64,000 nt of DNA, taken from NCBI GenBank assembly GCA_038820405.1, contig JAWAXL010000001.1:1208-65207 (forward strand). Direction: 5' to 3'. This stretch comes from Candidatus Bathyarchaeia archaeon (GTDB lineage: Archaea > Thermoproteota > Bathyarchaeia > Bathyarchaeales > DTEX01). Positions 1 to 23,936 of the stretch are shown one piece after another; the first letter of the stretch is position 1, and every line of letters begins with the position of its first letter. Made by a program: the position numbers and the translations under genes. Under the pieces are notes generated by a model. It was not told the DNA's origin. It did no database searches and was given only the letters and a program-made list of their open reading frames with translations.

Positions 1-213
1 ACATGATTCAAGGATACCTAAACCTTGCCCACAATATTTTTCGGGAAAGTGTACTCCGATAAAGCCTAGCTGGGCAGCCTTCTTATGTAGATCTTCAGGC
101 CACTTATACTCTTGATCACACTTTCTTCCATATTCTGGTTTAAACTCTTTCTCAGCAAATTCACGCGCAGCCTTCTGAATTGCTTTCTGACTCTCAGTAA
201 ACTCAAAATACAA
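1..213 (-). CDS. acyl-CoA dehydrogenase, N-terminal 71 codons (rest of gene lies left of window)
   Basis: Minus-strand ORF open to the window edge and absent from the supplied track. TTG start at 213..211 follows GGAGGTG. Translation LYFEFTESQKAIQKAAREFAEKEFKPEYGRKCDQEYKWPEDLHKKAAQLGFIGVHFPEKYCGQGLGILESC looks like the conserved ACAD N-terminal helical domain. Confidence 0.6.
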   Translation of the reverse strand, partial: MYFEFTESQKAIQKAAREFAEKEFKPEYGRKCDQEYKWPEDLHKKAAQLGFIGVHFPEKYCGQGLGILESC

Positions 214-588
214 AGGGTAACACCTCCTTCAGATCTTCAAACAATACTTATTAGTTTCAAACTATTTATAATTTTAAAATTTTATATTTTGATCTTACGT
301 TTTAATGGAGCATAAGTTAAATATATTATATTGTGAAAAGAGACCGAGAAAAATATGCTTTAATGACTATCCCAGCTTAAATGGCTCAATTAAACAGGCG
401 GAATAAGGAAAAATAGAAAATTCTGGTGAATAAATAAGGCATTAGTTAAGCTGATGCTTTGGTATTAGAATAGAGGACGCTTACGAAGTAGGGAGGAAAG
501 ATGAATATCGCCACATGACCTAGATTACAAACACTAACAAGGACCAAAAACATAAGTCTTAAAGAAAAATCTTTATAGTTATTAGTTT

Positions 589-604
589 TATACTAATTAG
601 TATA
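589..604. promoter_or_regulatory. perfect 16-bp palindrome TATACTAATTAGTATA upstream of DUF35-thiolase pair
   Basis: Self-complementary by direct reading. It sits immediately 5' of a GGGGG SD-like run and the TTG613/GTG619 starts. It could be a TATA-like element and/or a dimeric regulator site. Confidence 0.35.
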
Positions 605-612
605 GGGGGTTA

Positions 613-1035
613 TTGAAAGTGAAAACTCAAGTACCCGTTGTTGAAGGTTTGTTTACTTGGCCATCAGATGACCCGAGGCTAATCGGGTCTAGATGCCCCG
701 TCTGCGGCTCATATCAATTTCCTAAATCAAAAGTTTGTAACAATCCAGACTGCGACCATTCCCAGCCAACTGAAGAAGTACTGCTTAGTAAAGAGGGAAC
801 CTTATATTCATTCACAATTCACTATTATGATCTGAGGGAGCCCTTACAGTATCATAAAGCTCCCTATGCTATAGGTGCGGTAGAGATTCCGGAGGGATTA
901 ATTATTATAGGGAGATTGACTGAGACTGATCCGGCGAAGCTTAAGATTGGAATGAAAATGAGATTTAAAGTAGATAAGCTCTATGAGGATGGAGATAAAG
1001 TTTATTTGACCTACTTTTTTGAGCCTGTTCCCTGA
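613..1035 (+). CDS. DUF35 family OB-fold/Zn-ribbon protein (thiolase partner, BbsA-like)
   Basis: 140-aa ORF with Zn ribbon CPVCGSYQFP..CNNPDC followed by an OB-like C-terminus. A 9-nt gap separates it from the thiolase-like gene. GTG619 is an alternative start with better SD spacing. Confidence 0.75.
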   Translation: MKVKTQVPVVEGLFTWPSDDPRLIGSRCPVCGSYQFPKSKVCNNPDCDHSQPTEEVLLSKEGTLYSFTIHYYDLREPLQYHKAPYAIGAVEIPEGLIIIGRLTETDPAKLKIGMKMRFKVDKLYEDGDKVYLTYFFEPVP

Positions 1036-1044
1036 GGTGGTAGT

Positions 1045-2268
1045 ATGACCCAAACAGCAATAATATCCGGGGCTCTATCTCCGTGGGACAGAGCCGGGAA
1101 TCCTAGACCAATGGCAGAAGATTTAGCTATAATTGCCATAGAAGCACTTAGAAAAGCTGGGATGAGACCCGCAGATATAGATGCAATTGTCTGCACCACT
1201 AGCGCTATACCATTTGACTCTCCATCCTATATCACTTTAAGCGCTCAGCTCATGGCTCAAAGACTAGCAGAAAAAATGGGATCTCATGGAGCTCAATGTT
1301 TCAACGTTAGCGGCGCATGCGCATCCGGTGCAATGGCCTTCACTATTGGCAATTATCTAATAAAATCCGGAAGTGCCAAAAATGTGCTAGTTGCAGGAAT
1401 CGATAACTCTCCACCAGGATTCTTCTTCCAATGCCCCTCTGTACTAGATACAGATTTGGCCTCATGCTACCCTCATAAAGTGATCGGAGCTACAAACCCG
1501 ACTTATTGGGCAATGTGGGCCCACAGACGCGCATATGAAATGGGAAAGTCCATAGAAGAAATTAAACACTTAATGGCACTTGTAAAACATTATCATAGCT
1601 TATATGGAGTTCTGAATCCATATGCAAGATTTAGAAGAGTATTTACTGTGGAAGAAGTGCTAGCTTCCCCAATTGTTTGTGATCCCCTTCACCTTTATAT
1701 GATCGGTGCTGTTAGTTCGGGGGCTGGAGCAATAATACTCACAGACTTAGAAAGTGCAAAGAAATACACAAATAAGCCCGTCGTGGTTGCAGCTTCGGCG
1801 GTAGGGGGACCAGTATATGGAGATTCAAAACTGCGATTGATATTTTTCGCATTCACTAAAAAACATCCTCCATTCACCGAGATGAAGATAACTGTACAAC
1901 GAGCATATAAAGAAGCTGGCATCACTCAGGAAGACGTTGAGATCATGGAGGTGCATGACACAAGTGTCTTTAATACGCTGTTATGGATTGACGTTACTAT
2001 GGATTGGGAAAGAGAAGAGACGGACAAACTAGTTAAAGATGGGCAAATCAAACATGACGGCAAACTCCCAGTTAACCTAAGTGGTGGAACAGCATCCTTT
2101 GGCGAATCAGTACAGAACCAAATATTAGTAGAGCTTTATGAAATATTCTTACAACTTAGAGGTGAAGCGGGAGAAAGACAAGCTAAAAAGAACCTTAAGA
2201 TAGGACTAGCTACCGCCTATGGATTGTTAGGATCCTATGGTGCTGTAGTGCTGGAAAAAGCATGGTAA
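1045..2268 (+). CDS. thiolase-fold protein, SCP-x / lipid-transfer-protein type acyl-CoA thiolase
   Basis: 407 aa. Nucleophile context NVSGACASGAMAF, and C-terminal VHDTSV and SGGTASFGES motifs typical of thiolase-like enzymes that pair with DUF35. Confidence 0.8.
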   Translation: MTQTAIISGALSPWDRAGNPRPMAEDLAIIAIEALRKAGMRPADIDAIVCTTSAIPFDSPSYITLSAQLMAQRLAEKMGSHGAQCFNVSGACASGAMAFTIGNYLIKSGSAKNVLVAGIDNSPPGFFFQCPSVLDTDLASCYPHKVIGATNPTYWAMWAHRRAYEMGKSIEEIKHLMALVKHYHSLYGVLNPYARFRRVFTVEEVLASPIVCDPLHLYMIGAVSSGAGAIILTDLESAKKYTNKPVVVAASAVGGPVYGDSKLRLIFFAFTKKHPPFTEMKITVQRAYKEAGITQEDVEIMEVHDTSVFNTLLWIDVTMDWEREETDKLVKDGQIKHDGKLPVNLSGGTASFGESVQNQILVELYEIFLQLRGEAGERQAKKNLKIGLATAYGLLGSYGAVVLEKAW

Positions 2269-2278
2269 AAATTAAACC

Positions 2279-2289
2279 TTTTATTTTTT
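2279..2289 (+). terminator. oligo-T tract after thiolase gene
   Basis: TTTTATTTTTT begins about 11 nt after the stop codon. Archaeal terminators are oligo-T runs. Confidence 0.35.
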
Positions 2290-2771: not shown

Positions 2772-2785
2772 AAGGAGTAAGTTTT

Positions 2786-4171
2786 ATGAGTCTGAATTTG
2801 CCTGAAAAATGGGATTATGAGGCGGACATAGTAGTAATTGGTGCAGGAACTGCGGGATTACCTGCAGCGATAGAGGCAAGAAAACGTAACAACGAGGTCA
2901 TTATTCTAGAAAAAGCAAAAGAAGGCGAATGGAGGAGCAGCCTATCAGTAATAGTGGGACTGATAAACTTTGCAGGAACTAAATATCAAAAGGAAAAGGG
3001 AATTGTGGATTCGCCAGCCAAATATGCTGAAGATGGAGTTAAATATTGTGGAGGCGATCCTGCTTTTTGGAAGGTCTTCACAGACAACCATCTAGATACT
3101 TTAGAGTTTATTGAAAGAGAATTAGGATTAAAGCCAAGAGGCATCGGAGCCTGTCCAGGACATAGCGCGCCCAGAGGACACTACTTTCATGGACCTGAAG
3201 TTCTCAGAAGACTTGAAGAAAAAGCTAAAGAAGTAGGTATCAATATAATGTGGGGCACTCCTGCGAAGAGACTGTATAGAGACCCTGTCACTGGGAGAGT
3301 TATTGGGGTAATAGCTGAGAAAGAAGGAAAGCTTTTGAATATACGAGCACGAAAAGCAGTAATCATTTGTACAGGAGGATTCGGGCGAAACGATGAATTG
3401 ATTAAGGAGTATGGACCGGATTATCTTCTTAAGGCATTGAGGCTCATGCCACCAACTCATACGGGTGACGGACTCATAATGGCTATGAGCATAGGAGCAG
3501 CAACAAGAGATATAAAACATGCGCCTAAACCCTCATTACCAACATGTATACACAAGCATATCGATACCTTCGTATACTATTTTGGGGGCATATTGGTAAA
3601 TAAAGATGGAAAAAGATTTATCTCAGAAGATCTATGGTATGGCTTTCTCTCAGAGGCAGGTATTAATCAGCCCGGTGGTGTTTACTTCATAATATATGAC
3701 GATGCAATTAGGGAGAAAGTGAGAAAGGAATATCCTATGTTTCTTAGGCACTATGAGTATAAAGCAAACACTATTGAAGAATTAGCTAAGATGATGGAGA
3801 TAGATCCTAAGGGCCTTAAAGCCACTATTGAGAAATATAACAAAGACATAGAGACTGTAGGGTATGACACTGTCTTCAATAGGAGAACGCTTGATGGTGT
3901 TGTCGGGCCCTTAGTAAAAATAGAGAAACCACCATTCTATGGTATGAAGGCTACAGTCTCTATGACGTCTTTCAAGGGAGGTATAAGAATTAACACTAAA
4001 GGTCAAGTCTTAGATTGGAACAATAATCCCATACCAGGACTTTATGCTGCTGGCGAGTGCACAGGAGGCTTCTTCAGTGCCGGAAAGTATCTTGGAGGAA
4101 CCATGACTAGCATGTCAATGACAATGGGTCGCGTAGCTGCTATCTTTGCGTCCCAAGAGTCATGCAGGTGA
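2786..4171 (+). CDS. FAD-dependent oxidoreductase (FAD_binding_2; fumarate reductase / 3-ketosteroid dehydrogenase-like flavoprotein)
   Basis: 461 aa. N-terminal dinucleotide fold DIVVIGAGTAGLPAAIEA and C-terminal GLYAAGECTGG motif typical of soluble fumarate-reductase-like flavoproteins. Confidence 0.8.
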   Translation: MSLNLPEKWDYEADIVVIGAGTAGLPAAIEARKRNNEVIILEKAKEGEWRSSLSVIVGLINFAGTKYQKEKGIVDSPAKYAEDGVKYCGGDPAFWKVFTDNHLDTLEFIERELGLKPRGIGACPGHSAPRGHYFHGPEVLRRLEEKAKEVGINIMWGTPAKRLYRDPVTGRVIGVIAEKEGKLLNIRARKAVIICTGGFGRNDELIKEYGPDYLLKALRLMPPTHTGDGLIMAMSIGAATRDIKHAPKPSLPTCIHKHIDTFVYYFGGILVNKDGKRFISEDLWYGFLSEAGINQPGGVYFIIYDDAIREKVRKEYPMFLRHYEYKANTIEELAKMMEIDPKGLKATIEKYNKDIETVGYDTVFNRRTLDGVVGPLVKIEKPPFYGMKATVSMTSFKGGIRINTKGQVLDWNNNPIPGLYAAGECTGGFFSAGKYLGGTMTSMSMTMGRVAAIFASQESCR

Positions 4172-4175
4172 GAGA

Positions 4176-4406
4176 ATGCCAAAAATTGTAGTCTATAAAA
4201 CATGTACTGGATGCGGAGCATGCATAGAAAAGTGCGGCACAGCAAATCTTATCTTAGATAAGAAGACGAAGTTAATAAAACCTGATAAAGGCATTGTTTC
4301 CACTAGAGAATTTGATGATAGAATTGAATACGATGTTCCTGGTTGTGCGGCATGCAGGTACTGTGAGATATTCTGCCCGGTTGGGGCCATCGCGATAGAG
4401 ATTTAA
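4176..4406 (+). CDS. 2x[4Fe-4S] ferredoxin
   Basis: Two CxxCxxCxxxC(P) motifs (CTGCGACIEKC, CAACRYCEIFCP). ATG 4176 lies 5 nt after the flavoprotein stop. The track ORF starts earlier at 4146, inside the upstream gene. Confidence 0.75.
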   Translation: MPKIVVYKTCTGCGACIEKCGTANLILDKKTKLIKPDKGIVSTREFDDRIEYDVPGCAACRYCEIFCPVGAIAIEI

Positions 4407-4419: not shown

Positions 4420-5658
4420 GTGGTGGAGATGGTCTATGGAAGGTCTCTCTCAGACATCGGCATGGCAGTAGACGTTGAGAGACTAAGGAGAGAGAGAATA
4501 GAAAAAGCTAAGAACTCTGCCAAAAAATTTAATCTAGAATGCCTACTTTGTTTCCGCCCAGAAAACATAAGGTATCTGACAATAGGTCCTCATTACGCCT
4601 TTTATCGTTACGTCTTCTTTCCAATAAAAGACCAACCCACTCTCTTCGATGCTGGAATGACTGAATGGGCCTATAGAATAAGCTTTAGATGGCTTAAAAC
4701 TAAACACTCAATACCAATGCCGGAAGGTCTTATATTTAACGAGCAAGCATATAATCGCCAAATTGAAAAATTCGTTCAGCAAATAAAAGCTGAGTTAAAA
4801 GAGTATAGTCTCTCCAAGGAACCAATAGGAATAGACGTGTATCACCCTGCGATAATCCGAGCGATGGAAAAGGAGGGTATAAATCTTTCGACGAATGGAG
4901 CTAAAGTGATGGTTGATGCTAGAAAAACAAAGACTAAAGATGAAATTGAATTGCTAAGAATTGCTCATAGTATTGTTGAGGGATGTTTTGAGGAAGCGAA
5001 AATGGTCATAAAGCCAGGTGTGACGGAAAGACAGGTGTGGGCTGCAATTGTGCGTAAAGCATTTGATTTAGGGGCTGAAGCGGTCTATGGAGGGTTAGTT
5101 TGCTCAGGCCCACATACATGGCCGAATGCGAATGTCATAACTGATAGGATAATAAGGCCGGGAGACATAGTGTTTATTGATATTTATGACTTATCCTATT
5201 TTGGGTATAGGACATGTTACTACCGTACATTTTGTTGCGGTAAGCCTACACAAAAGCAGGAAGAGGCATGGGCTAGGGTTAGAGACTGGTTGTGGGACTC
5301 TATAAAGATCATTAAGCCGGGAATTACTACTAAGGACATAGTTGAAAAGTGGCCTAAGGCTGAGGAATTTGGCTATCCTAGCGAGGAAGCATCTTGTCTT
5401 GCGCAATGGGGGCATGGTATTGGTTTAACTCTCTACGAGCCTCCTATGATCTCAAGAATATGGTCCTTAGACTATCCTGAAAAAATTGAGGAAGGAATGG
5501 TTATAGCTCTGGAAACGATAGGCCCAACTGGCGAAAAAACTCCAGAATATCCATATGGGCAAGGTGTTAGAATCGAGGAAGTTATTGCCATCACAGAATC
5601 TGGGTACGATCTACTAACTAGATGGCCAGTAGATAAAATTACTGCCTGCGAATTCTAA
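4420..5658 (+). CDS. M24-fold metallohydrolase (creatinase / Xaa-Pro dipeptidase-like)
   Basis: 412 aa. Pita-bread-fold ligand pattern is present (FIDIYD, GHGIGLTLYEPP, VIALETI, VRIEEV). ATG 4429 after GAGGTGG is the likelier start. Confidence 0.7.
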   Translation: MVEMVYGRSLSDIGMAVDVERLRRERIEKAKNSAKKFNLECLLCFRPENIRYLTIGPHYAFYRYVFFPIKDQPTLFDAGMTEWAYRISFRWLKTKHSIPMPEGLIFNEQAYNRQIEKFVQQIKAELKEYSLSKEPIGIDVYHPAIIRAMEKEGINLSTNGAKVMVDARKTKTKDEIELLRIAHSIVEGCFEEAKMVIKPGVTERQVWAAIVRKAFDLGAEAVYGGLVCSGPHTWPNANVITDRIIRPGDIVFIDIYDLSYFGYRTCYYRTFCCGKPTQKQEEAWARVRDWLWDSIKIIKPGITTKDIVEKWPKAEEFGYPSEEASCLAQWGHGIGLTLYEPPMISRIWSLDYPEKIEEGMVIALETIGPTGEKTPEYPYGQGVRIEEVIAITESGYDLLTRWPVDKITACEF

Positions 5659-5736: not shown

Positions 5737-7239
5737 GTGGTGGATATGATAGAAAAGACAGCCCTTATAACCATCTATAGTATTGTGATATTTGCAGCAA
5801 TATGCATTGGGTATGGTATTTATTTAGCGCGTAGACTGCGAGGTTCTTCTGACTTTCTGGCGGCGTCAAAGGCCTTACCGTGGTATGCTGTTGCTATGGG
5901 TGTTGCGCTCTCCCCTCTGGGCTCTGGGCATACTATAGGCATGTGGGAGACGGGTTATCTGGCAGGTTTAATGGCCGTTTGGTTCTCAATATGTTTTGGC
6001 GCCCTCTTTATGCCCTGGTGTTTCTATGGTTTAGGTTCTTGGATACGTAGGACGGGTGCCATCTCGATTCCAGAAACATTTCATTTGTTTTATGGACCGC
6101 TAGGACGTAAGCTGAGCATCTTACCAAACTGGGGATTCTCATTCTGCATAGCGGGTATTGAAATACTATGCATATCCTACGCTATATATGGGATAACAGG
6201 GCTACCACTAATTCCATGGTGCATTGTCATCTCCACCATACTCTCAATAATTTATGTCGAGTTCGCTGGACTCCGCCAATTAGGCTACTTAAACGTAATC
6301 TTCGCACTAATCATGTACATAGGAGCGTACCTAGGTCTTGCATGGCTAGGTGCATACGCGCTGCCATCCCAGCTAGGTATAACATGGGAGGGCATAACCC
6401 AAAGACTCACAGAAATGGGGCAAGCATTTAAACTAAACATGTTTGCCTCACCAGAAATCATATCGACAATAGCTATACCGATGGTGATATTTGCCCTATT
6501 TGGCTGTGGAAGTGTGCAAATGCCAATGCAAGCTGCCTTTGGTGCAAAGGATATAAAAGAAGTTAGAAAAGCATTACCCTCAGCGGCATTCGTAAACTCT
6601 CTCTCAACAATTCCCTGGGCGGCTATAGGGCTTATAACTGTTGTAACTGCGTTTGCAGCAGCTGGCCCCTCAATAGGACCTATCAACCTTATGGTAACCT
6701 TACTACCTGCGGAAATAGTTGCTGCGTTGCTAATATCCCTATTGGTCGCTAATATCTCCACATCGGCAGGACACATTCTAGCAACAACTATTGTTAGCAC
6801 TAACGATATCTATAAAGGATTCATTAATCCAAATGCGGATGAAAAGACGCAGCTAAGACTTTCTAGAATTCTAGTGATCATTTATAGTATTATCGGGGGC
6901 CTCATAGCCTACATGTTAGCGGCCGCCCAAGCCCTAATTATACCAAACTTGATGTGGACCTCTGCTCTGGCACTACCAGGATTCTTCCTAGCGCTTTATG
7001 GCTTTTGGTGGAAGAGGAGCAAAAAAGCTTTCACGCTTTCGTGGCTTATTATATGGATTGTTGTAACCGTATGGACCTTTATACCACGTAGCATACTCCT
7101 CCAATACGTGCCAGCATGGTTGGCGGAGCCACTTAACTTCTCAGCCATATTATCGTTCATAGTAGTCACCGCATTGACTGCAGCACTGCCCGGTGAGAAA
7201 GGATACTTCAAGAGTCAGGGGGTAGTAAAGAATGCTTGA
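5737..7239 (+). CDS. sodium:solute symporter (SSF) family transporter, paralog 1
   Basis: 500 aa and polytopic. After TM1 comes the SSF-typical basic loop RRLRGSSDFLAASKALPW. It is a paralog of 19021..20547 and 22243..23730. Confidence 0.7.
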   Translation: MVDMIEKTALITIYSIVIFAAICIGYGIYLARRLRGSSDFLAASKALPWYAVAMGVALSPLGSGHTIGMWETGYLAGLMAVWFSICFGALFMPWCFYGLGSWIRRTGAISIPETFHLFYGPLGRKLSILPNWGFSFCIAGIEILCISYAIYGITGLPLIPWCIVISTILSIIYVEFAGLRQLGYLNVIFALIMYIGAYLGLAWLGAYALPSQLGITWEGITQRLTEMGQAFKLNMFASPEIISTIAIPMVIFALFGCGSVQMPMQAAFGAKDIKEVRKALPSAAFVNSLSTIPWAAIGLITVVTAFAAAGPSIGPINLMVTLLPAEIVAALLISLLVANISTSAGHILATTIVSTNDIYKGFINPNADEKTQLRLSRILVIIYSIIGGLIAYMLAAAQALIIPNLMWTSALALPGFFLALYGFWWKRSKKAFTLSWLIIWIVVTVWTFIPRSILLQYVPAWLAEPLNFSAILSFIVVTALTAALPGEKGYFKSQGVVKNA

Positions 7240-13469: not shown

Positions 13470-14885
13470 ATGACTTGGCTTCCATTACCAAAAGCATGGG
13501 ATGAAGAGTTTGATATAATAGTTGTGGGTGCTGGTACTGCTGGCTTGCCTGCCGCTGCCATGGCTGCAAAGCAGAAAGTTAATGTCGTTGTGCTTGAACA
13601 AATGCCGTGTTGTGCTGGCAGTCCCAGCTATATAGGAGGATACTTAAACGCATGTGGGACGGAATACCAAAAGAAACTGGGAATCAATGACTCTAAGGAG
13701 TTAATGTATAAAGACTATATAGAAACTTGTAAGGGAGACCCTACATTATTAAAAATCTTCGTAGAAGATGCTCCTACAACAGTTGAAATTATTAAACAGT
13801 ATGGTGTAGAGCCCAGAGCTGTCCAAAGAATACCGGGAGCCTCCGTTCCTCGCGCACACATGTATGAGGGGGTTCAGATTTTAAGGGCTTTGGAGAGACT
13901 TGCAAAAGACTATAAAGTTGAAATTCGTTTCAAACATAAGTTTCTAGATCTTTACAGGGATCCTGAAAGTAAGAGAGTAGTGGGAGTTAAAGTAAGGCGA
14001 GGCCGTGGGGAGTATCTAAACTTCAGGGCTAAGAAAGCAGTTATTCTCGCATCTGGGGGATGGATCTCAAACCCCATGATGATGTGGGATCTTGGCAGTT
14101 ATGCCCATGCTAAAGAAGCTGTTGCACTAGCACGCGGGCACACAGGGGAGGGTGTGATGGCGGCTTTGCGCATTGGCGCCCACTTGAAGTGGGTAGGATG
14201 TGCTGTTAGGGGTTCAACAGGAATAGATGCTAACACGCTGCACCCACACGCCCTGACTTGGGGCCCCCTCACGTGGGCTGGCGGCATAATGGTGAATATT
14301 GAGGGAAGAAGATTCGTGGATGAGAGTGGCATCTTATTCCCAACATTAGGAGATGCTGTTTTCAGTCAACCGGGTCACATGGCCTTTTGTATCTATGATG
14401 CAAAACTTAGACCATCAATAGTTAAAGCGTTGCATGAAGCGGGTATTGAGATAGCATGGTATAAGGAGTATCAGGCGGATAGCCTAGATAAATTGGCTAG
14501 AGAAATTGGTGTACCAACAGACATATTTGTGAAGGAAGTTCAGGAGTATAATGAGGACGTCAAGAAATATGGATATGATAGGAGGTTTGGAAGAAACTTT
14601 ATTCCAGTTCTACAGTCGAAGCCTATTCCAATAGAGACGCCACCATTCTATGCTGTAAAGGGCATGTCAGCCCACACTTCATTAAAGAGCAGTCTGGAGC
14701 TTGATAGCGAGATGAGAATTGTAGACTTAAGAGGTGAGCCAATTCCAGGGCTATACGGAGCTGGAGAAGTTGCCTGTGGCGGGTTGTTCAGAGATGGCTG
14801 GTATCCTTGTGGCACAATGATGAATATGGGTCAAGTCTTCGGACGACGAGCAGGTACTATTGCAGCAACTAAGGAGCCGAGGTGA
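13470..14885 (+). CDS. FAD-dependent oxidoreductase (FAD_binding_2), paralog of 2786..4171
   Basis: 471 aa with DIIVVGAGTAGLPAAAMA and GLYGAGEVACGG motifs. It has the same architecture, and the same downstream ferredoxin, as the first pair. Confidence 0.8.
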   Translation: MTWLPLPKAWDEEFDIIVVGAGTAGLPAAAMAAKQKVNVVVLEQMPCCAGSPSYIGGYLNACGTEYQKKLGINDSKELMYKDYIETCKGDPTLLKIFVEDAPTTVEIIKQYGVEPRAVQRIPGASVPRAHMYEGVQILRALERLAKDYKVEIRFKHKFLDLYRDPESKRVVGVKVRRGRGEYLNFRAKKAVILASGGWISNPMMMWDLGSYAHAKEAVALARGHTGEGVMAALRIGAHLKWVGCAVRGSTGIDANTLHPHALTWGPLTWAGGIMVNIEGRRFVDESGILFPTLGDAVFSQPGHMAFCIYDAKLRPSIVKALHEAGIEIAWYKEYQADSLDKLAREIGVPTDIFVKEVQEYNEDVKKYGYDRRFGRNFIPVLQSKPIPIETPPFYAVKGMSAHTSLKSSLELDSEMRIVDLRGEPIPGLYGAGEVACGGLFRDGWYPCGTMMNMGQVFGRRAGTIAATKEPR

Positions 14886-14890
14886 TAAGA

Positions 14891-15079
14891 ATGCCCTATT
14901 TTATAGATAGAAATATTTGCATTGGATGCGGCGCATGCACTACAGTTTGTCCAACTGAGGCTATAGATTGGGTAGAAGTCGGACCGAATGATGTAAGGTG
15001 CGAGATTATACAACGGTTCTGTAACGAATGTGGTGTATGCGCCGAGTGGTGCGTGCGTAAAGCTATTAAAAAGGTATAA
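14891..15079 (+). CDS. 2x[4Fe-4S] ferredoxin, paralog of 4176..4406
   Basis: Motifs CIGCGACTTVCP and CNECGVCAEWC. ATG 14891 lies 6 nt after the flavoprotein stop. Confidence 0.75.
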   Translation: MPYFIDRNICIGCGACTTVCPTEAIDWVEVGPNDVRCEIIQRFCNECGVCAEWCVRKAIKKV

Positions 15080-15112: not shown

Positions 15113-16342
15113 TTAATTATTTTCCTTTTGATATTTTCGTGTTGGTAAAAGTAGAAGTACTGACAGAAATGATGCTATCAGCGCAGTTAAAAACGATAAT
15201 TTAAATGTCTTGGTTATATCAGCCATCCACCCAGCTAATGGAGGCGAGATCATGCATCCTATGCCAAAGAAAACTATTAGTAAGCCTTGTACCGCTCCAA
15301 TATATTCTTCAGAGAAAATATCAGAGGCATATGCAGCATAAAGCGTTCCCAGGGCACCAAAACCTATCCCATAAATAATTGCTGATAAGGATACTGTAAT
15401 AAAGGCCAAGTTTAGGAAGTTGCTGGCCAAAATTATTCCAAGTAAGCCTAATATAGGAAATGACCCATCAATAATCATTGCTTTTATTCTTCCAATGATT
15501 TCAGAGAAGAATGACAAAATGATTACGCCGGGTACTGCTCCGATAGTGATCATGCTTACGACGGCGGCAGCATTTTCATAGGGTAGTAGGAGTTCCAGAA
15601 AACAATATGTGCTGAGAAAAGCAAGTAAAATTGCTACATAAAAACCGACAAACATGTATGATAAACCTAACATCCATAGTTTTATATCCTTAGCCATATT
15701 TAAGAGTGAAAATTTGTATTGGTTCCATCCTCTTACTATCTTTTTCTGCTCGTAACCCTCAGGATAGCTTTTCAATAGAAACCAGGTTAGGGGGACAAGT
15801 ATTAGACTGGCAAGGCCAAGAGTCTGCCATCCAAGCCTCCAGCTTCCAATTCTAACTAGCAGTGGCATAATGATGCCACTTAGGGCAAAGGTAGAGTGTG
15901 CCCCGGCAGCGGTTACTGCTACTGAAAATGCTCGCTTTTTACTAAACCATCTCTGAATCACTACGACTATGGGAACCCAAGCTGCCGCACAACCAATGCC
16001 AGTCAACATATATGATATTGTTGCTTCAAGTAATGTATTTGATAGGCTTAGGAGGAGGATACCGATGCCCGCTATCAATAAAAAGATGGAGATTATTTTT
16101 CTAGCATTATATCTATCTATGAGTACACCAAGTATCAGCGAGAAGATTGTATAGCCAAGGAAGTGGGATGTATATATTATGCCAGCCTCAAGCTTCGAAA
16201 TATTAAGTGAGAGTAGCATCTCAGGGAGCAAAATGCCATAACTATATCTAATTGCAAAGCTTACAAGAACAATAAAGAACCCTAAGACAAGAATGATTAT
16301 GCTCCTTTCAATTCGAGGAAAATTCATGAAGGGTCCCTCCAT
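15113..16342 (-). CDS. MFS transporter
   Basis: 409 aa with about 12 hydrophobic segments. MFS motif-A-like GVLIDRYNARKI lies between TM2 and TM3. Confidence 0.8.
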   Translation of the reverse strand: MEGPFMNFPRIERSIIILVLGFFIVLVSFAIRYSYGILLPEMLLSLNISKLEAGIIYTSHFLGYTIFSLILGVLIDRYNARKIISIFLLIAGIGILLLSLSNTLLEATISYMLTGIGCAAAWVPIVVVIQRWFSKKRAFSVAVTAAGAHSTFALSGIIMPLLVRIGSWRLGWQTLGLASLILVPLTWFLLKSYPEGYEQKKIVRGWNQYKFSLLNMAKDIKLWMLGLSYMFVGFYVAILLAFLSTYCFLELLLPYENAAAVVSMITIGAVPGVIILSFFSEIIGRIKAMIIDGSFPILGLLGIILASNFLNLAFITVSLSAIIYGIGFGALGTLYAAYASDIFSEEYIGAVQGLLIVFFGIGCMISPPLAGWMADITKTFKLSFLTALIASFLSVLLLLPTRKYQKENN

Positions 16343-16545: not shown

Positions 16546-17445
16546 ATGAGGGAGCTATCTATGATAATTGACTCTTGGGTATTAGGTTGCTGGACACCTG
16601 AGCTACGAAAAGCATATCTAGAGCACCCCCTAACGCGAAGGTTTATGAAGGTTTTTAGGCTAGAGGGAGAGGATCGAGTGCCATCTAAAACAGTTGAGCA
16701 AATGGTAGAGGAAATGGAGAACACTGGCATTGATAAAGCCGTATTAGTTGGGGACTCGCCATTTAAACCCGCAGTAAGCTATGGTCCATCGATTCCGCCT
16801 TCATTTGGAACCTATGAACAATGGAGTAAATTTGCAGATAAGTATCCGGATAAATTTGTTGTATGTGCTACACCCTCTAGACCTGGATACTGGGATGTTA
16901 GACAAACTGTGAGGGAGGTTGAGAGAGCAGTAAAAGATTTTCACGCTCAGGCAATAAATATTCCGTCTCCTGCTTGGAATTTACCATTTAATTCAAAATT
17001 ACTCTATCCTGTTTATTCTAAGTGTGTTGAACTAGGCATCTCGATATGGATTTGGGTAGGCATCCCTGGACCCTACTATCCAGTAAAAGTGGCACAAGTT
17101 ATTTTCTTGGATGAGATCGCGTTGGCCTTTCCAGAGTTGAAGATAGTTGCGCACCACATAGGAGACCCTTGGATCCAAATGGTAACCCATCTAGCAGGAA
17201 AATATGAGAACCTGTATATATGTACATGTGCCTGGTCACCTAGATGGTATCCAAGTGAACTAGTTAACTTTATGAAAACATCATGGTTTGGCACTAGGGG
17301 GAGTGAAAAAGTTCTTTTTGGAACGGCTTATCCGGTTTTACCATGGAAAAGAGCTGTTGAGGAAGCCTTAGCTTTACCTTTGGAGGACGAGGATAAAAGA
17401 AAGTTTTTGGGGGAAAATGCTTTAAAGTTATTTCATTGGGGATAA
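16546..17445 (+). CDS. amidohydrolase_2 (TIM-barrel metal-dependent hydrolase/decarboxylase) family, active-site motifs degenerate
   Basis: Family-like layout, but the expected HxH reads IIDSWVL, the mid-barrel His reads IWIWVG, and the final GxDxP reads FGTAYP. The likely start is ATG 16561, after GAGGGAG. Confidence 0.6.
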   Translation: MRELSMIIDSWVLGCWTPELRKAYLEHPLTRRFMKVFRLEGEDRVPSKTVEQMVEEMENTGIDKAVLVGDSPFKPAVSYGPSIPPSFGTYEQWSKFADKYPDKFVVCATPSRPGYWDVRQTVREVERAVKDFHAQAINIPSPAWNLPFNSKLLYPVYSKCVELGISIWIWVGIPGPYYPVKVAQVIFLDEIALAFPELKIVAHHIGDPWIQMVTHLAGKYENLYICTCAWSPRWYPSELVNFMKTSWFGTRGSEKVLFGTAYPVLPWKRAVEEALALPLEDEDKRKFLGENALKLFHWG

Positions 17446-18029: not shown

Positions 18030-19013
18030 ATGGCAAAAGATGAGTTCTTTAAGATAGACGTGGAGGCTCACTTAGTAGGCGATATGGAGCCAATCTCATA
18101 CTTTCCAGGAGTTCAAATGTGGTGGCGCGCTGTTCACGGCATTACGCGGCCACTCTTCTTCCCATTAGAAACACCTTCTGAACTACTGAAAGTGAAACAT
18201 AAGCCTGAGGAGTTAATTGAAATCATGGACAAATATGAGGTTGATATGGCTTTTGTGCTTCCCGAGTCAATGATGGATACGACGGGCTACGCTACGCGCT
18301 GGGTAACAAATGGTTATGTAGCTGCTGCCTGCGCAAAATATCCAGAAAGATTCATTTTCTGCCCAAACGTAGGGCCAATTAAAAAGAGAGGAGTGAAGAA
18401 CGCTGTCTGGGAACTTGAATATTTAGTGAAAGAGAGGAATGCGAAGGTAGTCAAGCTTTATTCGCCAGAGGACATCTATCTGAACGACCCTGAAATTTAT
18501 CCATTCTATGAAAAATGTGTTGAACTAAAGATTCCAGTCTGCATTCATACAGGATTTTGCTGGGTCCCTCCAGGCAGAGCTAAATATTGCCATCCAGAAC
18601 AACTAGACGATGTGGCAACCGACTTTCCCGACCTAATAATAATTGCTTATCATGCAGGGTGGCCTTATCCAGATGTCTTAAATATGGTTGCGGCGACTCA
18701 CCCAAACGTATATATAGGGTTAAACTTAATAGTGCCTTGGGCTTTGGCTACACCCAGACGCTTTGCAATGATATTGGGTGAGGCTCTCCGCTGGGTTGGG
18801 CCTGACAGAATTGTGTGGGGGACTGACTTTGCTGGGTTGGAAGCGCAAGTCCTATATGCTGTTGAGGGACTTAAAAAATTCCAGATACCGAAGGATATGC
18901 AGGAAGAGTATGGTTACCCAGCTTTGACGGACGAGGATAAAAAGAAGATTTTCGGATTAAATCTGGCGAAAATACTCGGTATAAAGCCAGAGAGGAAGAT
19001 GGGAAAGAGGTGA
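18030..19013 (+). CDS. amidohydrolase_2 family metal-dependent hydrolase/decarboxylase
   Basis: 327 aa. Candidate ligand motifs are intact: KIDVEAHLV, VCIHTGF, AYHAGWP, WGTDFAG. A 7-nt gap separates it from the downstream symporter. Confidence 0.7.
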   Translation: MAKDEFFKIDVEAHLVGDMEPISYFPGVQMWWRAVHGITRPLFFPLETPSELLKVKHKPEELIEIMDKYEVDMAFVLPESMMDTTGYATRWVTNGYVAAACAKYPERFIFCPNVGPIKKRGVKNAVWELEYLVKERNAKVVKLYSPEDIYLNDPEIYPFYEKCVELKIPVCIHTGFCWVPPGRAKYCHPEQLDDVATDFPDLIIIAYHAGWPYPDVLNMVAATHPNVYIGLNLIVPWALATPRRFAMILGEALRWVGPDRIVWGTDFAGLEAQVLYAVEGLKKFQIPKDMQEEYGYPALTDEDKKKIFGLNLAKILGIKPERKMGKR

Positions 19014-19020: not shown

Positions 19021-20547
19021 ATGATAATATGGGAGACCCTCATAGTTTTTCTAATATACTTTATTGTTAGCATGGTGGCTGTGGGGATATATACTCAGAG
19101 AAAATTCATTAAAAAGGGAATCGACTTTACAATAGCCAGCCGCACGTTGCCATGGTGGTTGATCGCCTCAGGCATCCTGCTAATACCATTCGGCATAGGC
19201 AACTCACTCTTAATAGCTGAGTCTTCATGGATATATGGTTCTTCCATACTTTGGTGGATGGTTGTGGGTTCAGCATTAACATGTGTAGTAGCTCTTATAG
19301 GTCCTGGAAGATGGTTCAGGCGAGTAGAAGCTGAAAGTTACCCGGATGCTCTTGCAAAGATATTTAAAGATGAACGCATGCGTATCATCGGAATTATGAC
19401 GAGCTACATGTGGGTTTTCGGCATCGCAACCTTAGAACTATTTGGATGCGCTGCCGCACTCTATGGACTTACTGGGCTCGATCTAACCTACTGTGTTCTC
19501 ATAGGCTTCCTCCTCTACTTCTTATACATCATATTTGGCGGAATGTTCCAGTATACTTATCTAAATATCTTGAACGTGATAGTCATCTATATTTGCATCG
19601 GCCTAACCTTCTTCGGCTTAAGTATGTGGATAGCGCCTATAGGCGGATGGGAGGGTGCGACCACACTCATCGCTGAGAAGATGGGTACATGGGCAACTAC
19701 CATGCTTCCACTTGAGAGACTAGGCGAAATGTTCTTAGCACTTTGGATCCCAATATTAGTCGCACATACAGCAGCAGTAGCATTTACAGGTCCTGTACCA
19801 CTAGTGACTCATGGAATGAAAAGTGAAAGGGAAGCTATTAAAGGATGGCCTATGGCGTTGCTTCTTAACGGGTATTGGGGCTGGCTATGGGTAATGCTTG
19901 GAATGCTAGCATTAGTTGTTCCTGCATCACTCTATGGGCCAATGGCTCCTGCCATTGAGGCGCTCAGGGCAGCTCCAGGAGTAACTGGAGCGGTGCCAGC
20001 TGCAATTATAACGGCGATTAGTACTGGAACAATTTCCTCTACAGCTGTCCTTATAGCGTTGATGGCGGCAACAATATCCACTGGCTCCGCCTGTGCCTTA
20101 TATATAGCCTCAAGCACCACAACTGACATTGTTAAGAGATATCTTAATCCAAATATTAGTGAGAGAAAGTTCATATGGCTCGTAAGGATTGTTGCTATAG
20201 GCATAATGGCCGCTGCCATTTGGGGAGCTCTGTTGCGTGGGTACCTACTTGGAGGATTCCTATGGATCTTCAGTTCAGCGATGCCAGTACTTATATATGT
20301 GCCATTAGCCTTCTTCTGGAGAAGAAACACTAATGCGGCTATAGCAACAACAATCATTAACTTCATTATTCTGTACATTTGGTTGATATTCTACCCAGCG
20401 TTGAGTCCTATGATGCCTTCTTGGATGCAGGCGCTTGGTTTCACCTATCCATCATTCATAGTCTCACTTATACTATACCCTGTACTAGCCTTGGCTCTCC
20501 CAGGAGGCAAGCCCGGATATCTAAAGGAGGAGAAACAGGAGGTGTAA
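19021..20547 (+). CDS. sodium:solute symporter (SSF) family transporter, paralog 2
   Basis: 508 aa and polytopic. About half its residues are identical by eye to 22243..23730 (for example ASRTLPWWL vs ASRTMPWWL, GNSLLIAESSWIYGS vs GNSLALSESSWIWGS). Confidence 0.75.
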   Translation: MIIWETLIVFLIYFIVSMVAVGIYTQRKFIKKGIDFTIASRTLPWWLIASGILLIPFGIGNSLLIAESSWIYGSSILWWMVVGSALTCVVALIGPGRWFRRVEAESYPDALAKIFKDERMRIIGIMTSYMWVFGIATLELFGCAAALYGLTGLDLTYCVLIGFLLYFLYIIFGGMFQYTYLNILNVIVIYICIGLTFFGLSMWIAPIGGWEGATTLIAEKMGTWATTMLPLERLGEMFLALWIPILVAHTAAVAFTGPVPLVTHGMKSEREAIKGWPMALLLNGYWGWLWVMLGMLALVVPASLYGPMAPAIEALRAAPGVTGAVPAAIITAISTGTISSTAVLIALMAATISTGSACALYIASSTTTDIVKRYLNPNISERKFIWLVRIVAIGIMAAAIWGALLRGYLLGGFLWIFSSAMPVLIYVPLAFFWRRNTNAAIATTIINFIILYIWLIFYPALSPMMPSWMQALGFTYPSFIVSLILYPVLALALPGGKPGYLKEEKQEV

Positions 20548-20553
20548 AATGAA

Positions 20554-20676
20554 ATGCCTGAGCTAATACTTCCATTACAACTATTCATTGAGCTAATGAT
20601 CCTTCTATGGGCAGTGAACATATGGTTTTATGTTGGATACAAGGTATGGAACAGATGGAGGGGAAAGAAGAAATGA
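20554..20676 (+). CDS. 40-aa single-TM micro-protein (VN[IM]WFY[IV]GY family)
   Basis: MPELILPLQLFIELMILLWAVNIWFYVGYKVWNRWRGKKK, starting 7 nt after the SSF stop. It is a clear homolog of 22120..22242. Not in the ORF track. Confidence 0.55.
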   Translation: MPELILPLQLFIELMILLWAVNIWFYVGYKVWNRWRGKKK

Positions 20677-20795
20677 TAGCGTGGGAATGGCTAATTGGAT
20701 GGGAAGGCTACCTGACATACGTATTCATAATCTCAACGATAATAGCCATCATAGCATATAAAAAGGGAAAAACTAGGCAATCTGGCGAGAAATAG
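20673..20795 (+). CDS. 40-aa single-TM micro-protein (MIAxEWLxxWEG family)
   Basis: MIAWEWLIGWEGYLTYVFIISTIIAIIAYKKGKTRQSGEK. ATGA overlap with the preceding micro-ORF. It is a homolog of 23820..23936. The track lists a longer 20607 start in the same frame. Confidence 0.55.
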   Translation: MIAWEWLIGWEGYLTYVFIISTIIAIIAYKKGKTRQSGEK

Positions 20796-21172: not shown

Positions 21173-22042
21173 ATGATTGGTGTAATCTTAGCTCTGATTA
21201 CAGCGTTCATCTATGGCTTATCTGTTGTTCTTATTCGAGAAAGAATTAGTGAATCAAATTATTTATCGGTTGCAGTAGTTCTCTCATTAATTGGCAACAT
21301 TATTCTTTGGCCCCTCACACTAACACTCATAAATCTAAGAAACGTTAATATTCAAAGCATTCCATTCTTCATCATAGCAGGGATATTTTCCCCTGGGATC
21401 GGTAGAATATTCTATTATAAAGGCATGGAAAAACTCGGTGTCTCTATAAATGCATCCATTTATGCGACTTACCCGCTGTTTAGTTCAATATTAGCAACAC
21501 TGTTGCTTGGAGAAATTGTAACGCCGAATGTCTGGCTTGGAATAATAGCAATAATGCTTGGGGTTATATTCATTGAGAGAAGCATCGCTAGACCCCCCAA
21601 TATTAAGACTAAACCTATTTCTAGGAAAGGCTTAATCTTCCCATTTCTTGCATCTATAATAATGGCTCTATCTTATCTCTCCAGAAAATATGGATTAAAT
21701 ATTTGTAGTGAACCCCTATTAGGTGTTACAATAGGGTATTCTTCAGCCCTACTTTCACAACTTCTAGTCTCAAGATTGCTTAGAATGCCGTTACTTCCAT
21801 CCTTTAAAGATATACACCTATTCTGGAGACCTGGCGTTCTCCTAATCTTAGGATGGACATCAGCTACCTATGCGTTAAATTATGAGAAAGTTTCTGTTAT
21901 AACTACCATTATACAAGTAGAGCCATTGTTCATCCTCTTTCTAACTTTTTTGAAGCTTAGAGAATTGGAGAGAATATCAACAAAGGTTGTCATAGGTACA
22001 ATTTTAATAGTTATAGGAGTCTCACTTGTCACGCTGAAATAA
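21173..22042 (+). CDS. EamA/DMT family permease
   Basis: 289 aa with 10 hydrophobic segments in two repeated halves, typical of drug/metabolite transporters. Confidence 0.8.
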   Translation: MIGVILALITAFIYGLSVVLIRERISESNYLSVAVVLSLIGNIILWPLTLTLINLRNVNIQSIPFFIIAGIFSPGIGRIFYYKGMEKLGVSINASIYATYPLFSSILATLLLGEIVTPNVWLGIIAIMLGVIFIERSIARPPNIKTKPISRKGLIFPFLASIIMALSYLSRKYGLNICSEPLLGVTIGYSSALLSQLLVSRLLRMPLLPSFKDIHLFWRPGVLLILGWTSATYALNYEKVSVITTIIQVEPLFILFLTFLKLRELERISTKVVIGTILIVIGVSLVTLK

Positions 22043-22119
22043 TCTTCTTTAAAGAAGAGACTTAAATTTCTGCACGCATAAAAAGGTTAAGGTGATATGG
22101 AAAAGTTAAGAGAATTGCT

Positions 22120-22242
22120 TTATTCGCTTTCCTTTTTAGGAGACTTCTTCCTTCTCTTATTTATTAAGTATCCAATGTAGAACCACATGTTTACTATTAT
22201 GAGTAGAGCAAGGAGTTCGAGTCCTATCCAGAGATGCCACAT
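22120..22242 (-). CDS. 40-aa single-TM micro-protein (VN[IM]WFY[IV]GY family)
   Basis: MWHLWIGLELLALLIIVNMWFYIGYLINKRRKKSPKKESE. Its ATG directly abuts the TAA stop of the symporter 22243..23730. Not in the ORF track. Confidence 0.55.
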   Translation of the reverse strand: MWHLWIGLELLALLIIVNMWFYIGYLINKRRKKSPKKESE

Positions 22243-23730
22243 TTACCTACCCCTCCTAGATATGAGGGTTAGTATTGGATATAGTATAACAGAAACTATG
22301 GATTGAGGATAGACGATTCCAAGCGGTGGGTGGAGCCAAACGGGCAGGGTAGCCATTATGGCTGGACCGAATAGCACCCACAATATAGATACAATCCATG
22401 CGATTATCACTGTGGTCGCCGCTGCCGTAGAGTTTCTCCTCCACCCGAGACCATACAGGGTTACGAGAAACACTGGTATCGAGAAGCTAAATATGTATAT
22501 GAAGCCCCCCATTAGAAATGGACGAATAACCGCTCCCAGCATACTAATTGCTAGTATGCAAAGTGTCAGTGCTCTTAATAGTCTTAGGAGTCCTTTATCA
22601 CTAATATTTGGTTTGATGAAGGGTTTAACTATGTCAACCGAGATCCATGTTGATCCAGTAATAGCGAGTATGCCGCCAGTGGATATTGTTGCCGCCATCA
22701 GCGCAATGAAAAATCCGGTGACAGCAGGAACGCCTGCAGAGACAAGACTAAACAGTGTGGCAGGTACAGCCCCTGCCGTACCTGCAGCTCTTAGCATAGA
22801 AATAAGTCCAGATAGTGGACCATAAAGGAAAAGAGGTACGCTGATGGCAATTAAACCGACCACGGTCCAACTATACCCCCAAAATCCGTTGAGAAGCAAT
22901 GCGGGCAACCAACCTTTCACAACTTCTTTTTCACTTCTAGCTCCTAGAACAGGCTGAGTACAAATAGGGACGACTGCACATGTATGCGCAAGTAATATAG
23001 GAATTACCAGACAAGCGAATAAGGGCGCAAGCATTTCAGGTGGGGCAATATGCAGACTCCAGGGCCCCATTGTTTCTTCAATATAACTAGAGACTCCCGC
23101 AATTCCACCCACCGGCCCAAGCCAAGAGTTAATTTGCCACATCCCTACGGCTAATCCAGCATATACAACAAATATGTTTATGAAATTCAGTATTGAATAT
23201 TGTAACATGCCACCAAGTATCACGTAAAGTGCGTACAAGCAAAATGCAATTATGACACAATATTCGATTGGAAGACCTAGTAGAGCGTAGAAAATACTGC
23301 TACAGGCGAACATTTCTAGGCTTGCTATAGCTATGGTAGTTACTGTGACCGCGGCTGATGAAAGAATCCTAAATCTGTCATCAAAAACCTTGCCTGCTGC
23401 TTCATGAGGTGTTTCAGCACCTAATCTTCTAGCCCATCTTCCATACCCAACGAATGCGGCTACTAATGTTAAGCCTGAACCTACTATCATCCACCATAAT
23501 ACGCCAGATCCCCATATCCATGATGACTCGGAGAGAGCTAGTGAGTTACCTACACCGAAAGGCAGGAGTATAGCTCCGAACATCACAAGCCACCACGGCA
23601 TTGTGCGCGATGCTACGGTGTAATCGATGCTTTTCCTAATATACTTCCTATTAACATAGATGCCTATTGCGGTCAATGAAATGAAGAAGTAAAGTAGTGT
23701 TGCTATCAGTGGAATAATAATTTCTTGCAT
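22243..23730 (-). CDS. sodium:solute symporter (SSF) family transporter, paralog 3
   Basis: 495 aa, a close paralog of 19021..20547 in inverted orientation. Confidence 0.75.
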   Translation of the reverse strand: MQEIIIPLIATLLYFFISLTAIGIYVNRKYIRKSIDYTVASRTMPWWLVMFGAILLPFGVGNSLALSESSWIWGSGVLWWMIVGSGLTLVAAFVGYGRWARRLGAETPHEAAGKVFDDRFRILSSAAVTVTTIAIASLEMFACSSIFYALLGLPIEYCVIIAFCLYALYVILGGMLQYSILNFINIFVVYAGLAVGMWQINSWLGPVGGIAGVSSYIEETMGPWSLHIAPPEMLAPLFACLVIPILLAHTCAVVPICTQPVLGARSEKEVVKGWLPALLLNGFWGYSWTVVGLIAISVPLFLYGPLSGLISMLRAAGTAGAVPATLFSLVSAGVPAVTGFFIALMAATISTGGILAITGSTWISVDIVKPFIKPNISDKGLLRLLRALTLCILAISMLGAVIRPFLMGGFIYIFSFSIPVFLVTLYGLGWRRNSTAAATTVIIAWIVSILWVLFGPAIMATLPVWLHPPLGIVYPQSIVSVILYPILTLISRRGR

Positions 23731-23819
23731 GTTGTGTATGTTTACTTGAAGATATATTTAACTTTTACGCTATAGTTAAAGCAAATTTTAAATATTGATA
23801 AGAAAAATATTTATTATTC

Positions 23820-23936
23820 ATGATAGCAACAGAATGGCTACTTGCTTGGGAAGGCATGTACACTTACATACTAATAATCATTGTGGCGGTAGGTCTTCTT
23901 TTTCTTAGAAAAAGAAAGCAACAAAAGCAGTTATAG
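23820..23936 (+). CDS. 38-aa single-TM micro-protein (MIAxEWLxxWEG family)
   Basis: MIATEWLLAWEGMYTYILIIIVAVGLLFLRKRKQQKQL. It is divergent from symporter paralog 3 and a homolog of 20673..20795. Not in the ORF track. Confidence 0.5.
   Translation: MIATEWLLAWEGMYTYILIIIVAVGLLFLRKRKQQKQL

Follow-up and report, generated by a model that had tools for sequence, protein, structure and literature searches.

We analyzed a window of 64,000 nucleotides from the Candidatus Bathyarchaeia archaeon assembly GCA_038820405.1 (contig JAWAXL010000001.1), to whose positions all coordinates below refer, with a focus on a block of catabolic and transport genes that fills its first 24.3 kb. The host is an archaeon of the Bathyarchaeia, and its nearest species (n=8, Pus10 68-80% identical) are mostly hot-spring metagenome-assembled genomes (MAGs). 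The right-hand border of the block is a tRNA-Phe(GAA) gene (24323..24418, minus strand) with a 20-nt intron and an encoded CCA, whose 3' end points toward the block; ARAGORN in its default mode missed this intron-containing gene, which was detected by Rfam (58.7 bits) and confirmed by ARAGORN -i. Its position upstream of Pus10 is kept in related loci L001-L004 and L007. The left end of the block is lost at the contig edge and the far border lies outside the available sequence: if locus tags step by 5, the thiolase gene QXH24_00020 is about the fourth gene of the contig, so that the block would extend leftward to the end of the contig, with its far border out of sight.

The genes of the block can be sorted into at least five transcription units. 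In the first, an acyl-CoA dehydrogenase (ACAD) gene, truncated by the window start to an N-terminal fragment of 72 codons (1..216, minus strand; 45% identical to the ACAD2 protein described below over 66 aa, BLASTP E=1e-17), is divergent from a plus-strand pair encoding a DUF35/ChsH2-type protein with OB fold and zinc ribbon (613..1035; PF01796, PF12172) and an SCPx-type thiolase (1045..2268; Thiolase_C_1; QXH24_00020), which starts 10 nt past the DUF35 gene. The second unit, also on the plus strand, comprises FAD1, a FAD_binding_2 flavoprotein resembling soluble flavocytochrome c and urocanate reductase (2786..4171; PF00890, 187 bits); Fd1, a small 2x[4Fe-4S] ferredoxin whose gene overlaps the 3' end of FAD1 (4146..4406; Fer4 families); a metallohydrolase or lyase of the M24 fold whose N-terminal domain is DddP/creatinase-like (4420..5658; PF00557); and the sodium:solute symporter SSF1 (5737..7239; PF00474), matched at superfamily level only. 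The third centers on OYE, a 641-aa FMN/[4Fe-4S]/FAD reductase of the FadH and 2-naphthoyl-CoA reductase (NCR) type (7683..9608, minus strand; PF00724 and PF07992), divergent from ACAD2, an acyl-CoA dehydrogenase or reductase with three ACAD domains (9792..10961, plus strand). ACAD2 is followed on the same strand by a cytoplasmic bis-MGD Mo/W enzyme (MGD, molybdopterin guanine dinucleotide) of the acetylene-hydratase clade, the 'CRMCHGGCG' family (11023..13158; assigned by Pfam and PDB 2e7z), and by a second flavocytochrome-c-like flavoprotein with its 2x[4Fe-4S] ferredoxin, FAD2 (13470..14885; PF00890) and Fd2 (14882..15079; Fer4 families), the latter overlapping the FAD2 stop codon; a convergent MFS transporter of the monocarboxylate or oxalate-formate type (15113..16342, minus strand; PF07690) closes the unit.

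In the fourth unit, again on the plus strand, the Amidohydro_2 TIM-barrel metal hydrolase AH2a (16546..17445) precedes a second Amidohydro_2 protein, AH2b (18030..19013); both pass the Pfam PF04909 gathering score, with 107 and 126 bits against 26.4. The symporter SSF2 (19021..20547; PF00474) starts 8 nt past AH2b in the same operon and is followed by two small single-transmembrane (single-TM) ORFs of about 40 aa each (20554..20795), which share motifs with ORFs beside SSF3. The fifth combines an EamA/DMT transporter (21173..22042, plus strand; PF00892, two copies) with SSF3 (22243..23730, minus strand; PF00474; QXH24_00115), which is directly followed by a 40-aa single-TM ORF (22120..22242, minus strand) and divergent from a 38-aa single-TM ORF with an EWLLAWEG motif (23820..23936, plus strand), both called as genes on an independently assembled Logan contig. 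Two kinds of these small ORFs, marked by the motifs N[IM]WFY[VI]GY and EWLxxWEGxxTY, recur beside SSF2 and SSF3, and their products may serve these divergent symporters as small accessory subunits. The top NCBIfam match of the MFS protein is the L-lactate MFS transporter, at 100 bits against a cut-off of 320.

ORF listing and Pfam/NCBIfam scans recovered every gene class that an initial annotation had named, where it had placed them, including the five transporters (three SSF, one MFS and one DMT, all found by Pfam) and a signal-less Mo enzyme, whose product (11023-13158) has no twin-arginine (TAT) leader. All block ORFs of at least 100 aa were assigned to metabolic or transport families; the block is catabolic and rich in transport. 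No regulator, integrase or transposase was found among ORFs of at least 30 aa in the gaps of the block, which agrees with the earlier claim that a regulator is lacking. The tRNA that was said to adjoin the end of the block is real but lies about 390 nt past the end then given, and the 'heavy paralogy' is present but ancient: the paralogues are 26-46% identical (FAD1/FAD2 36%, SSF2/SSF3 46%, SSF1/SSF2 28%, AH2a/AH2b 26%). No block protein reaches a curated NCBIfam equivalog cut-off, and this includes the more specific labels then applied (BbsAB, LigI/LigW/ACMSD, fumarate reductase, clostridial enoate reductase).

For OYE, the top solved relatives are NCR (PDB 6qkg, 456 bits) and FadH (414 bits), and its scores stay under the equivalog cut-offs for BaiCD (569 vs 825), mycofactocin OYE (550 vs 793) and bilirubin reductase (506 bits). 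Its nearest relatives, 76-78% identical, are archaeal, contrary to the clostridial label, and homologues are widespread across Archaea at about 50% identity. The best NCBIfam match of ACAD2 is AcrC (254 bits vs a cut-off of 640), and the thiolase matches the lipid-transfer protein PRK06059 (262 vs 424). The likeness to BbsAB holds for gene adjacency and not for the proteins, whose BbsA and BbsB scores are under the cut-offs. Assignment of the thiolase pair to the archaeal mevalonate thiolase/HMG-CoA synthase/DUF35 complex was rejected (no HMG-CoA synthase gene; NF053570 157 vs 600). FAD1 has urocanate reductase as its top PDB match (186 bits); both flavoproteins fall under the TIGR01813 cut-off, FAD2 scores 184 bits to TcuA and 216 bits to flavo_cyto_c, in each case under the respective cut-off, both weakly match vinyl-phenol reductase, and in the alignment of FAD1 to the fumarate reductase structure 1qo8 only the catalytic Arg is kept. 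AH2a finds an uncharacterised protein, BB4693, as its top PDB match, with weak LigJ and LigW matches; for the LigI/LigW/ACMSD family, neither AH2a nor AH2b has an NCBIfam match, and LigJ, LigY and LigW reach at most 32 bits in the PDB search; both proteins are without a near relative of established function.

The M24 protein matches DddP over its full length but weakly (97 bits vs a cut-off of 600; 72 bits in PDB) and keeps four of five metal ligands, with Cys replacing the second metal-binding Asp of prolidase and DddP. These features, together with the terrestrial hot-spring setting, led us to reject a dimethylsulfoniopropionate-lyase reading of FAD1-Fd1-M24-SSF1, in which DddP would yield acrylate for an acrylate reductase; DddP is kept only as an analogy for an M24 protein next to an ene-reductase.

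The Mo enzyme has acetylene hydratase as its top solved relative (PDB 2e7z, 447 bits, full length). Among 87 close homologues whose N-terminus is complete, 85 carry its CRMCHGGCG motif unchanged. Homologues 64-77% identical come from MAGs of Desulfobacterota, Chloroflexi, Actinomycetota and Acidobacteria and from one archaeal contig, and bacterial proteins (64-69%) are more similar to the enzyme than is any named Bathyarchaeia protein. Remoter homologues (44-55%) come with PsrB-like subunits, whereas the enzyme of the window has none. The Logan gene call starts this enzyme at Met22 (690 aa) and so drops the first Cys of the [4Fe-4S] motif (window 11023-11086); the GTG start at 11023 is more likely, since all full-length homologues retain this Cys.

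Mapping these proteins onto other contigs, we found that the families of the block recur in partial sets. Its transcription units number at least five and their homologues assort independently elsewhere. None of 84 Mo-enzyme loci examined reproduces the gene order of the entire 24 kb; of the other block genes, only AH2b (4 loci), ACAD (7) and OYE (5) co-occur there. AH2b is the recurrent partner, being 57-61% identical beside Mo homologues on L083, L086 and L122 and 88% identical on L173. The fullest set is found on L122, a high-GC bacterial contig with a co-directional operon of OYE, acyltransferase, SCPx thiolase, DUF35, enoyl-CoA hydratase, ACAD, CoA ligase, URO-D-like protein, Mo enzyme (49%), an unassigned ORF, AH2b (57%), FAD_binding_4 and CCG genes; L083, also a high-GC bacterial contig, carries OYE, enoyl-CoA hydratase, ACAD, CoA ligase, URO-D, two Mo genes and AH2b (61%). 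Thus, the core families of the block form a functional set elsewhere that includes steps the block lacks. On both contigs, a URO-D-like gene of about 370-380 aa precedes each Mo homologue, a pairing not seen in the window; one of the two URO-D-like genes of L083 has no Pfam match and was assigned by sequence clustering only.

The M24 protein keeps different company. Its homologues (55-61%) adjoin another NCR/FadH-type reductase and an MFS gene on L168-171, and others adjoin TRAP transporters and 2-oxoacid dehydrogenase complexes; since these contexts vary, the FAD1-Fd1-M24-SSF1 cassette is separable. An amine-dehydrogenase reading of the OYE-family protein beside the M24 homologues was discarded, because that protein is likewise nearest to NCR/FadH. 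The two closest OYE relatives also lie in different settings. L173, a JGI contig with a GC content of 0.46, combines OYE (77%), a frameshifted Mo gene (76.5%), AH2b (88%) and SSF2 (75%) in a different order, together with a CoA transferase, an enoyl-CoA hydratase, and IS240 and DUF4096 transposase fragments. At its positions 6755-9434, the Mo gene is frameshifted near the 5' end and followed by the IS240-family fragment, and the DUF4096 fragment comes after the SSF gene. L174, from another archaeon (GC 0.34), has the OYE orthologue (78%) among genes for SecE, Spt5, L11, eIF6, Hjc and tRNA synthetase.

The composition of the block gives a mixed picture. Synonymous codon usage differs between block and core, with a relative synonymous codon usage distance of 0.64 vs 0.30+/-0.06 in permutations (p<0.0005). 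By this measure, 17 of 17 block genes are classified as island-like, with a preference for GAA, AAA, CAA and AGA over the GAG, AAG, CAG and AGG favored in the core. By contrast, GC is 0.41 on either side of the tRNA and the tetranucleotide profiles of the two sides correlate at 0.93. Moreover, the codon shift extends to about 28 kb over Rpo4-DUF655-KsgA (26213-28135), which are syntenic in nearly all of 80 species-level Bathyarchaeia loci. Because these conserved genes share the A-ending preference, the codon signature is probably regional and not a marker of foreign DNA. No att-like repeat or partial tRNA-Phe copy was found in 1-24.3 kb, the far end being beyond the window and the contig edge.

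These data bear on the proposal, drawn from the initial annotation, that the block is a horizontally acquired accessory island beside tRNA-Phe and specifies a single coherent pathway by which phenylpropanoid or lignin-derived aromatic acids are used anaerobically. The tRNA 3' end facing the block and the shifted codon usage fit this proposal, as do the Mo enzyme and AH2b, common with bacteria at 57-77% identity, the single operons of L122 and L083 that carry the same families, the relatives in the acetylene-hydratase clade that dehydroxylate catechols (PMC7028382), and the weak vinyl-phenol reductase matches of both flavoproteins. However, a discrete acquired island is at odds with a block in which no integrase, att repeat or mobility gene was found and which shares the GC of the core, has a codon boundary that is off the tRNA and runs into core genes, and contains an OYE whose orthologue sits among housekeeping genes of another archaeon. 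A single pathway is hard to reconcile with at least five transcription units that have independent neighbours elsewhere, with the absence from the block of activation, hydratase and 3-hydroxyacyl-CoA dehydrogenase steps, and with Pfam/NCBIfam scans in which no benzoyl-CoA reductase, UbiD/UbiX or BamA-type ring hydrolase was seen. We therefore regard this explanation as unlikely, and the phenylpropanoid or lignin substrate as a guess.

A different question is whether the block belongs to the ordinary inheritance of the lineage. The Pus10-L21e-Rpo4-DUF655-KsgA order is conserved across the 80 species-level loci, but among the 64 Bathyarchaeia species loci that extend 3 kb or more upstream of Pus10 (8 kb or more in 50 of them), none has a homologue of any block protein there; in L007, tRNA-Phe is kept and a class-II-aldolase-like gene lies beyond. 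These 64 loci are from more distant species in which Pus10 is only 55-62% identical, so that loss of synteny is expected. The epithet 'accessory' is partly supported: it is favored by the missing synteny, the shifted codons, the lack of NCBI-sourced relatives at 70% identity and the rearranged L173 variant, and weakened by the core-like GC, the failure to find an integrase or att repeat, the fuzzy codon boundary and the lost left end. Vertically inherited, ordinary metabolic genes could produce the same picture if non-synteny reflects fast rearrangement in a deeply diverged group, the Bathyarchaeia, and if the block is weakly expressed relative to origin-proximal housekeeping genes, which would account for the codon shift. 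The equal GC, the absence of mobility genes from the block, the codon signature of Rpo4-DUF655-KsgA, the widespread archaeal OYE homologues and the divergence of the informative loci are all compatible with this explanation. On the other hand, a search of 5.8 billion proteins returned, for the Mo enzyme, M24 and OYE alike, no NCBI-sourced relative with an identity of 70% or more, from Bathyarchaeia or otherwise, even though eight species have Pus10 at 68-80%; the nearest relatives of these three proteins lie on unbinned metagenome contigs, in contrast to core proteins, which are 65-89% identical in the nearest MAGs. In addition, the Mo enzyme is closer to bacterial than to named Bathyarchaeia proteins, and the L173 variant bears insertion-sequence fragments. 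Purely vertical descent is, in our judgement, quite improbable.

The join at the tRNA itself could also be artificial, such that the 24-kb block comes from another co-occurring genome and was fused to the Pus10 side through a common tRNA-Phe sequence. The contigs of five of the eight nearest MAGs end within about 210 nt of tRNA-Phe, and in an independent Logan assembly of run SRR21619490 the corresponding contig (L175, equal to window 19389-24344) ends 22 nt inside the tRNA, which shows that tRNA-Phe is a de Bruijn branch point common to co-occurring relatives in a short-k assembler. The difference in codon usage across the join is also what such a chimera would give. However, GC is the same on both sides while related species have 0.43-0.46, the tetranucleotide profiles agree, and the codon shift does not begin at the tRNA. 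Moreover, the exact stretch common with L007, the only one measured, is 41 nt, which large-k assemblers can resolve. We consider a chimera highly improbable. We also do not take the contig breaks at the tRNA as a sign of a hypervariable island: since the Logan contig also breaks there, at a branch point of co-occurring relatives, they are ambiguous.

Taken together, these observations incline us, with modest confidence, to describe 1-24.3 kb as a chromosomal neighbourhood of catabolic genes in a hot-spring bathyarchaeon, specific to its lineage, prone to rearrangement and built from cassettes, and not as a self-mobile element. The cassettes are best described as having mixed ancestry. Their function is best read, by analogy, as a CoA-dependent route that handles a cyclic, aromatic or unsaturated acid, because the same families co-occur in bacterial operons and the solved relatives of OYE and the Mo enzyme act on aromatic or unsaturated substrates. 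If the cassettes cooperate, the symporters would import organic carboxylates; the M24 and Amidohydro_2 hydrolases and the Mo/W enzyme may strip substituents or add water; the two flavoproteins, with ferredoxins as presumed electron donors, and the FMN/FAD/[4Fe-4S] reductase would reduce C=C bonds; and the ACAD and thiolase-DUF35 proteins would shorten the CoA-ester intermediates. Overall, cyclic or unsaturated carboxylic acids are probably taken up, trimmed, reduced at C=C bonds and shortened in a beta-oxidation-like manner by the products of the block.

Several points weigh against this picture of a flexible, cooperating neighbourhood. The contigs of the nearest species stop at the tRNA, so the site of the block is unseen there in MAGs that are incomplete, and for this reason the evidence for flexibility is indirect. 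GC is equal to that of the core, and the codon shift, which extends over conserved genes, may reflect expression level or regional bias. Within 1-24.3 kb there is neither a CoA ligase nor a CoA transferase gene, nor one for an enoyl-CoA hydratase, a 3-hydroxyacyl-CoA dehydrogenase, an electron-transfer flavoprotein or a regulator; because activation, hydratase, dehydrogenase and electron-transfer genes are missing from this span, no complete route can be drawn. As no protein attains an equivalog cut-off, every statement on substrates is an analogy, and the M24 homologues beside 2-oxoacid dehydrogenase complexes fit no enoate logic.

Within the cassette-built neighbourhood, the Mo/W enzyme and AH2b deserve separate attention. 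The acetylene-hydratase clade also includes catechol dehydroxylases (Dadh/Cldh), whose own clade is sister to acetylene hydratase, as well as homologues in anaerobic aromatic degraders and Archaea (PMC7028382). Neither the Mo/W enzyme nor AH2b of the window had a match in scans of viral contigs. The 64-77% identity of the Mo/W enzyme between Bathyarchaeia and bacteria points to exchange between domains. We tentatively propose, while doubting it ourselves, that the CRMCHGGCG Mo/W enzyme and AH2b form a two-enzyme module that would convert a cyclic or (hydroxy)aromatic acid in a new way, independent of oxygen (e.g., by dehydroxylation, hydration or ring opening), to a product that would feed the OYE-type reductase and the beta-oxidation-like route. 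If this proposal is true, Bathyarchaeia would own a bacterial-style anaerobic aromatic pathway. The most novel piece of the block is this His-variant acetylene-hydratase-like enzyme with its Amidohydro_2 partner, common to both domains.

Bathyarchaeia are among the most abundant archaea of sediments and hot springs, and the degradation of aromatic and lignin-derived carbon has been attributed to them. To our knowledge, the enzymes behind this degradation are largely unassigned. As a genomic feature, a catabolic cluster in a variable region is unsurprising. Its value is that it offers testable candidates, namely a Mo/W enzyme that is cytoplasmic and belongs to the acetylene-hydratase/dehydroxylase clade, two flavoproteins that resemble enoate reductases and are coupled to ferredoxins, and an NCR/FadH-type reductase, and that it shows such gene sets are assembled from cassettes common with anaerobic bacteria.

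The remainder of the window (24-64 kb) carries archaeal housekeeping genes, including Pus10, L21e, Rpo4, DUF655, KsgA, RNR, PGK, GAPDH and PRPP synthase, both PolD subunits, GGGP synthase, Cdc6, CofD, Ftr and GARS. An inverted pair of sequences resembling origin recognition boxes (ACCCCACCATTTCCATTGGAAAA / TTTTCCAATGGAAATATAGGGGT) at 44961-45204 flanks about 200 nt upstream of cdc6 (45325), where GC falls to its minimum for the window (0.35) and the genes on either side encode GGGP synthase and Cdc6/PolD. We regard this region as a probable replication origin; its distance from the block is about 21 kb. The most atypical tetranucleotide profile of the window is found at 52000-58000 (r=0.76-0.78 to both reference profiles, GC 0.44-0.45), a deviation that exceeds that of the block; ORFs without a Pfam match in and around this region are at 51939-52877, 54123-55865, 56092-56532 and 56567-57682.

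Compared with tRNA-flanked genomic islands, the block is alike in bordering a tRNA 3' end, in its shifted codon usage and in its apparently patchy distribution, and differs in that it carries neither an integrase nor a GC shift and that the available sequence shows no att duplication. The thiolase and DUF35 genes are adjacent, as in the BbsAB benzoylsuccinyl-CoA thiolase and the steroid side-chain pairs with their SCPx-type thiolases; the proteins differ from BbsAB in score (BbsA 48 vs 250 bits, BbsB 102 vs 750 bits), although BbsA is the top NCBIfam match of the DUF35 protein. FAD1 shares with the urocanate reductase UrdA and the Shewanella fumarate reductase Fcc3 the full-length FAD_binding_2 fold and the catalytic Arg (GKRF; G-K/R-R-F motif), but in the 1qo8 alignment it lacks the fumarate-binding His and the Glu/Arg relay of soluble fumarate reductase. 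Unlike UrdA and Fcc3, both FAD1 and FAD2 are without a haem or FMN-binding entry domain and are paired instead with a small 2x[4Fe-4S] ferredoxin.

The comparison with acetylene hydratase of Syntrophotalea (Pelobacter) acetylenica is the most detailed. The Mo enzyme differs in its catalytic residue, where Asp13 is replaced by His (His24, in CRMCHGGCG), and in the hydrophobic substrate ring, where Gly stands in for Ile14 and Phe for Ile142, and where Ile113 is lost to a deletion (acetylene-hydratase residues numbered as in the literature). Owing to these changes, it is not an acetylene hydratase in the strict sense. Both enzymes have the bis-MGD fold and the N-terminal [4Fe-4S] motif, and the window protein retains equivalents of the Cys metal ligand (Cys141) and of Lys48. 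Both are also without a TAT leader and without a neighbouring iron-sulfur or membrane subunit, from which it follows that the Mo enzyme is cytoplasmic and single-subunit. At the level of whole gene sets, anaerobic naphthalene degradation brings together type III OYE aryl-CoA reductases, an amidohydrolase (ThnN/BamU) and thiolases (PMC12016498), a parallel that we treat as a lead and not a test. Finally, OYE resembles both the type III aryl-CoA reductase NCR and E. coli FadH in its FMN-binding TIM barrel, in a Cys motif typical of a [4Fe-4S] site and in its FAD/NAD(P) domain.

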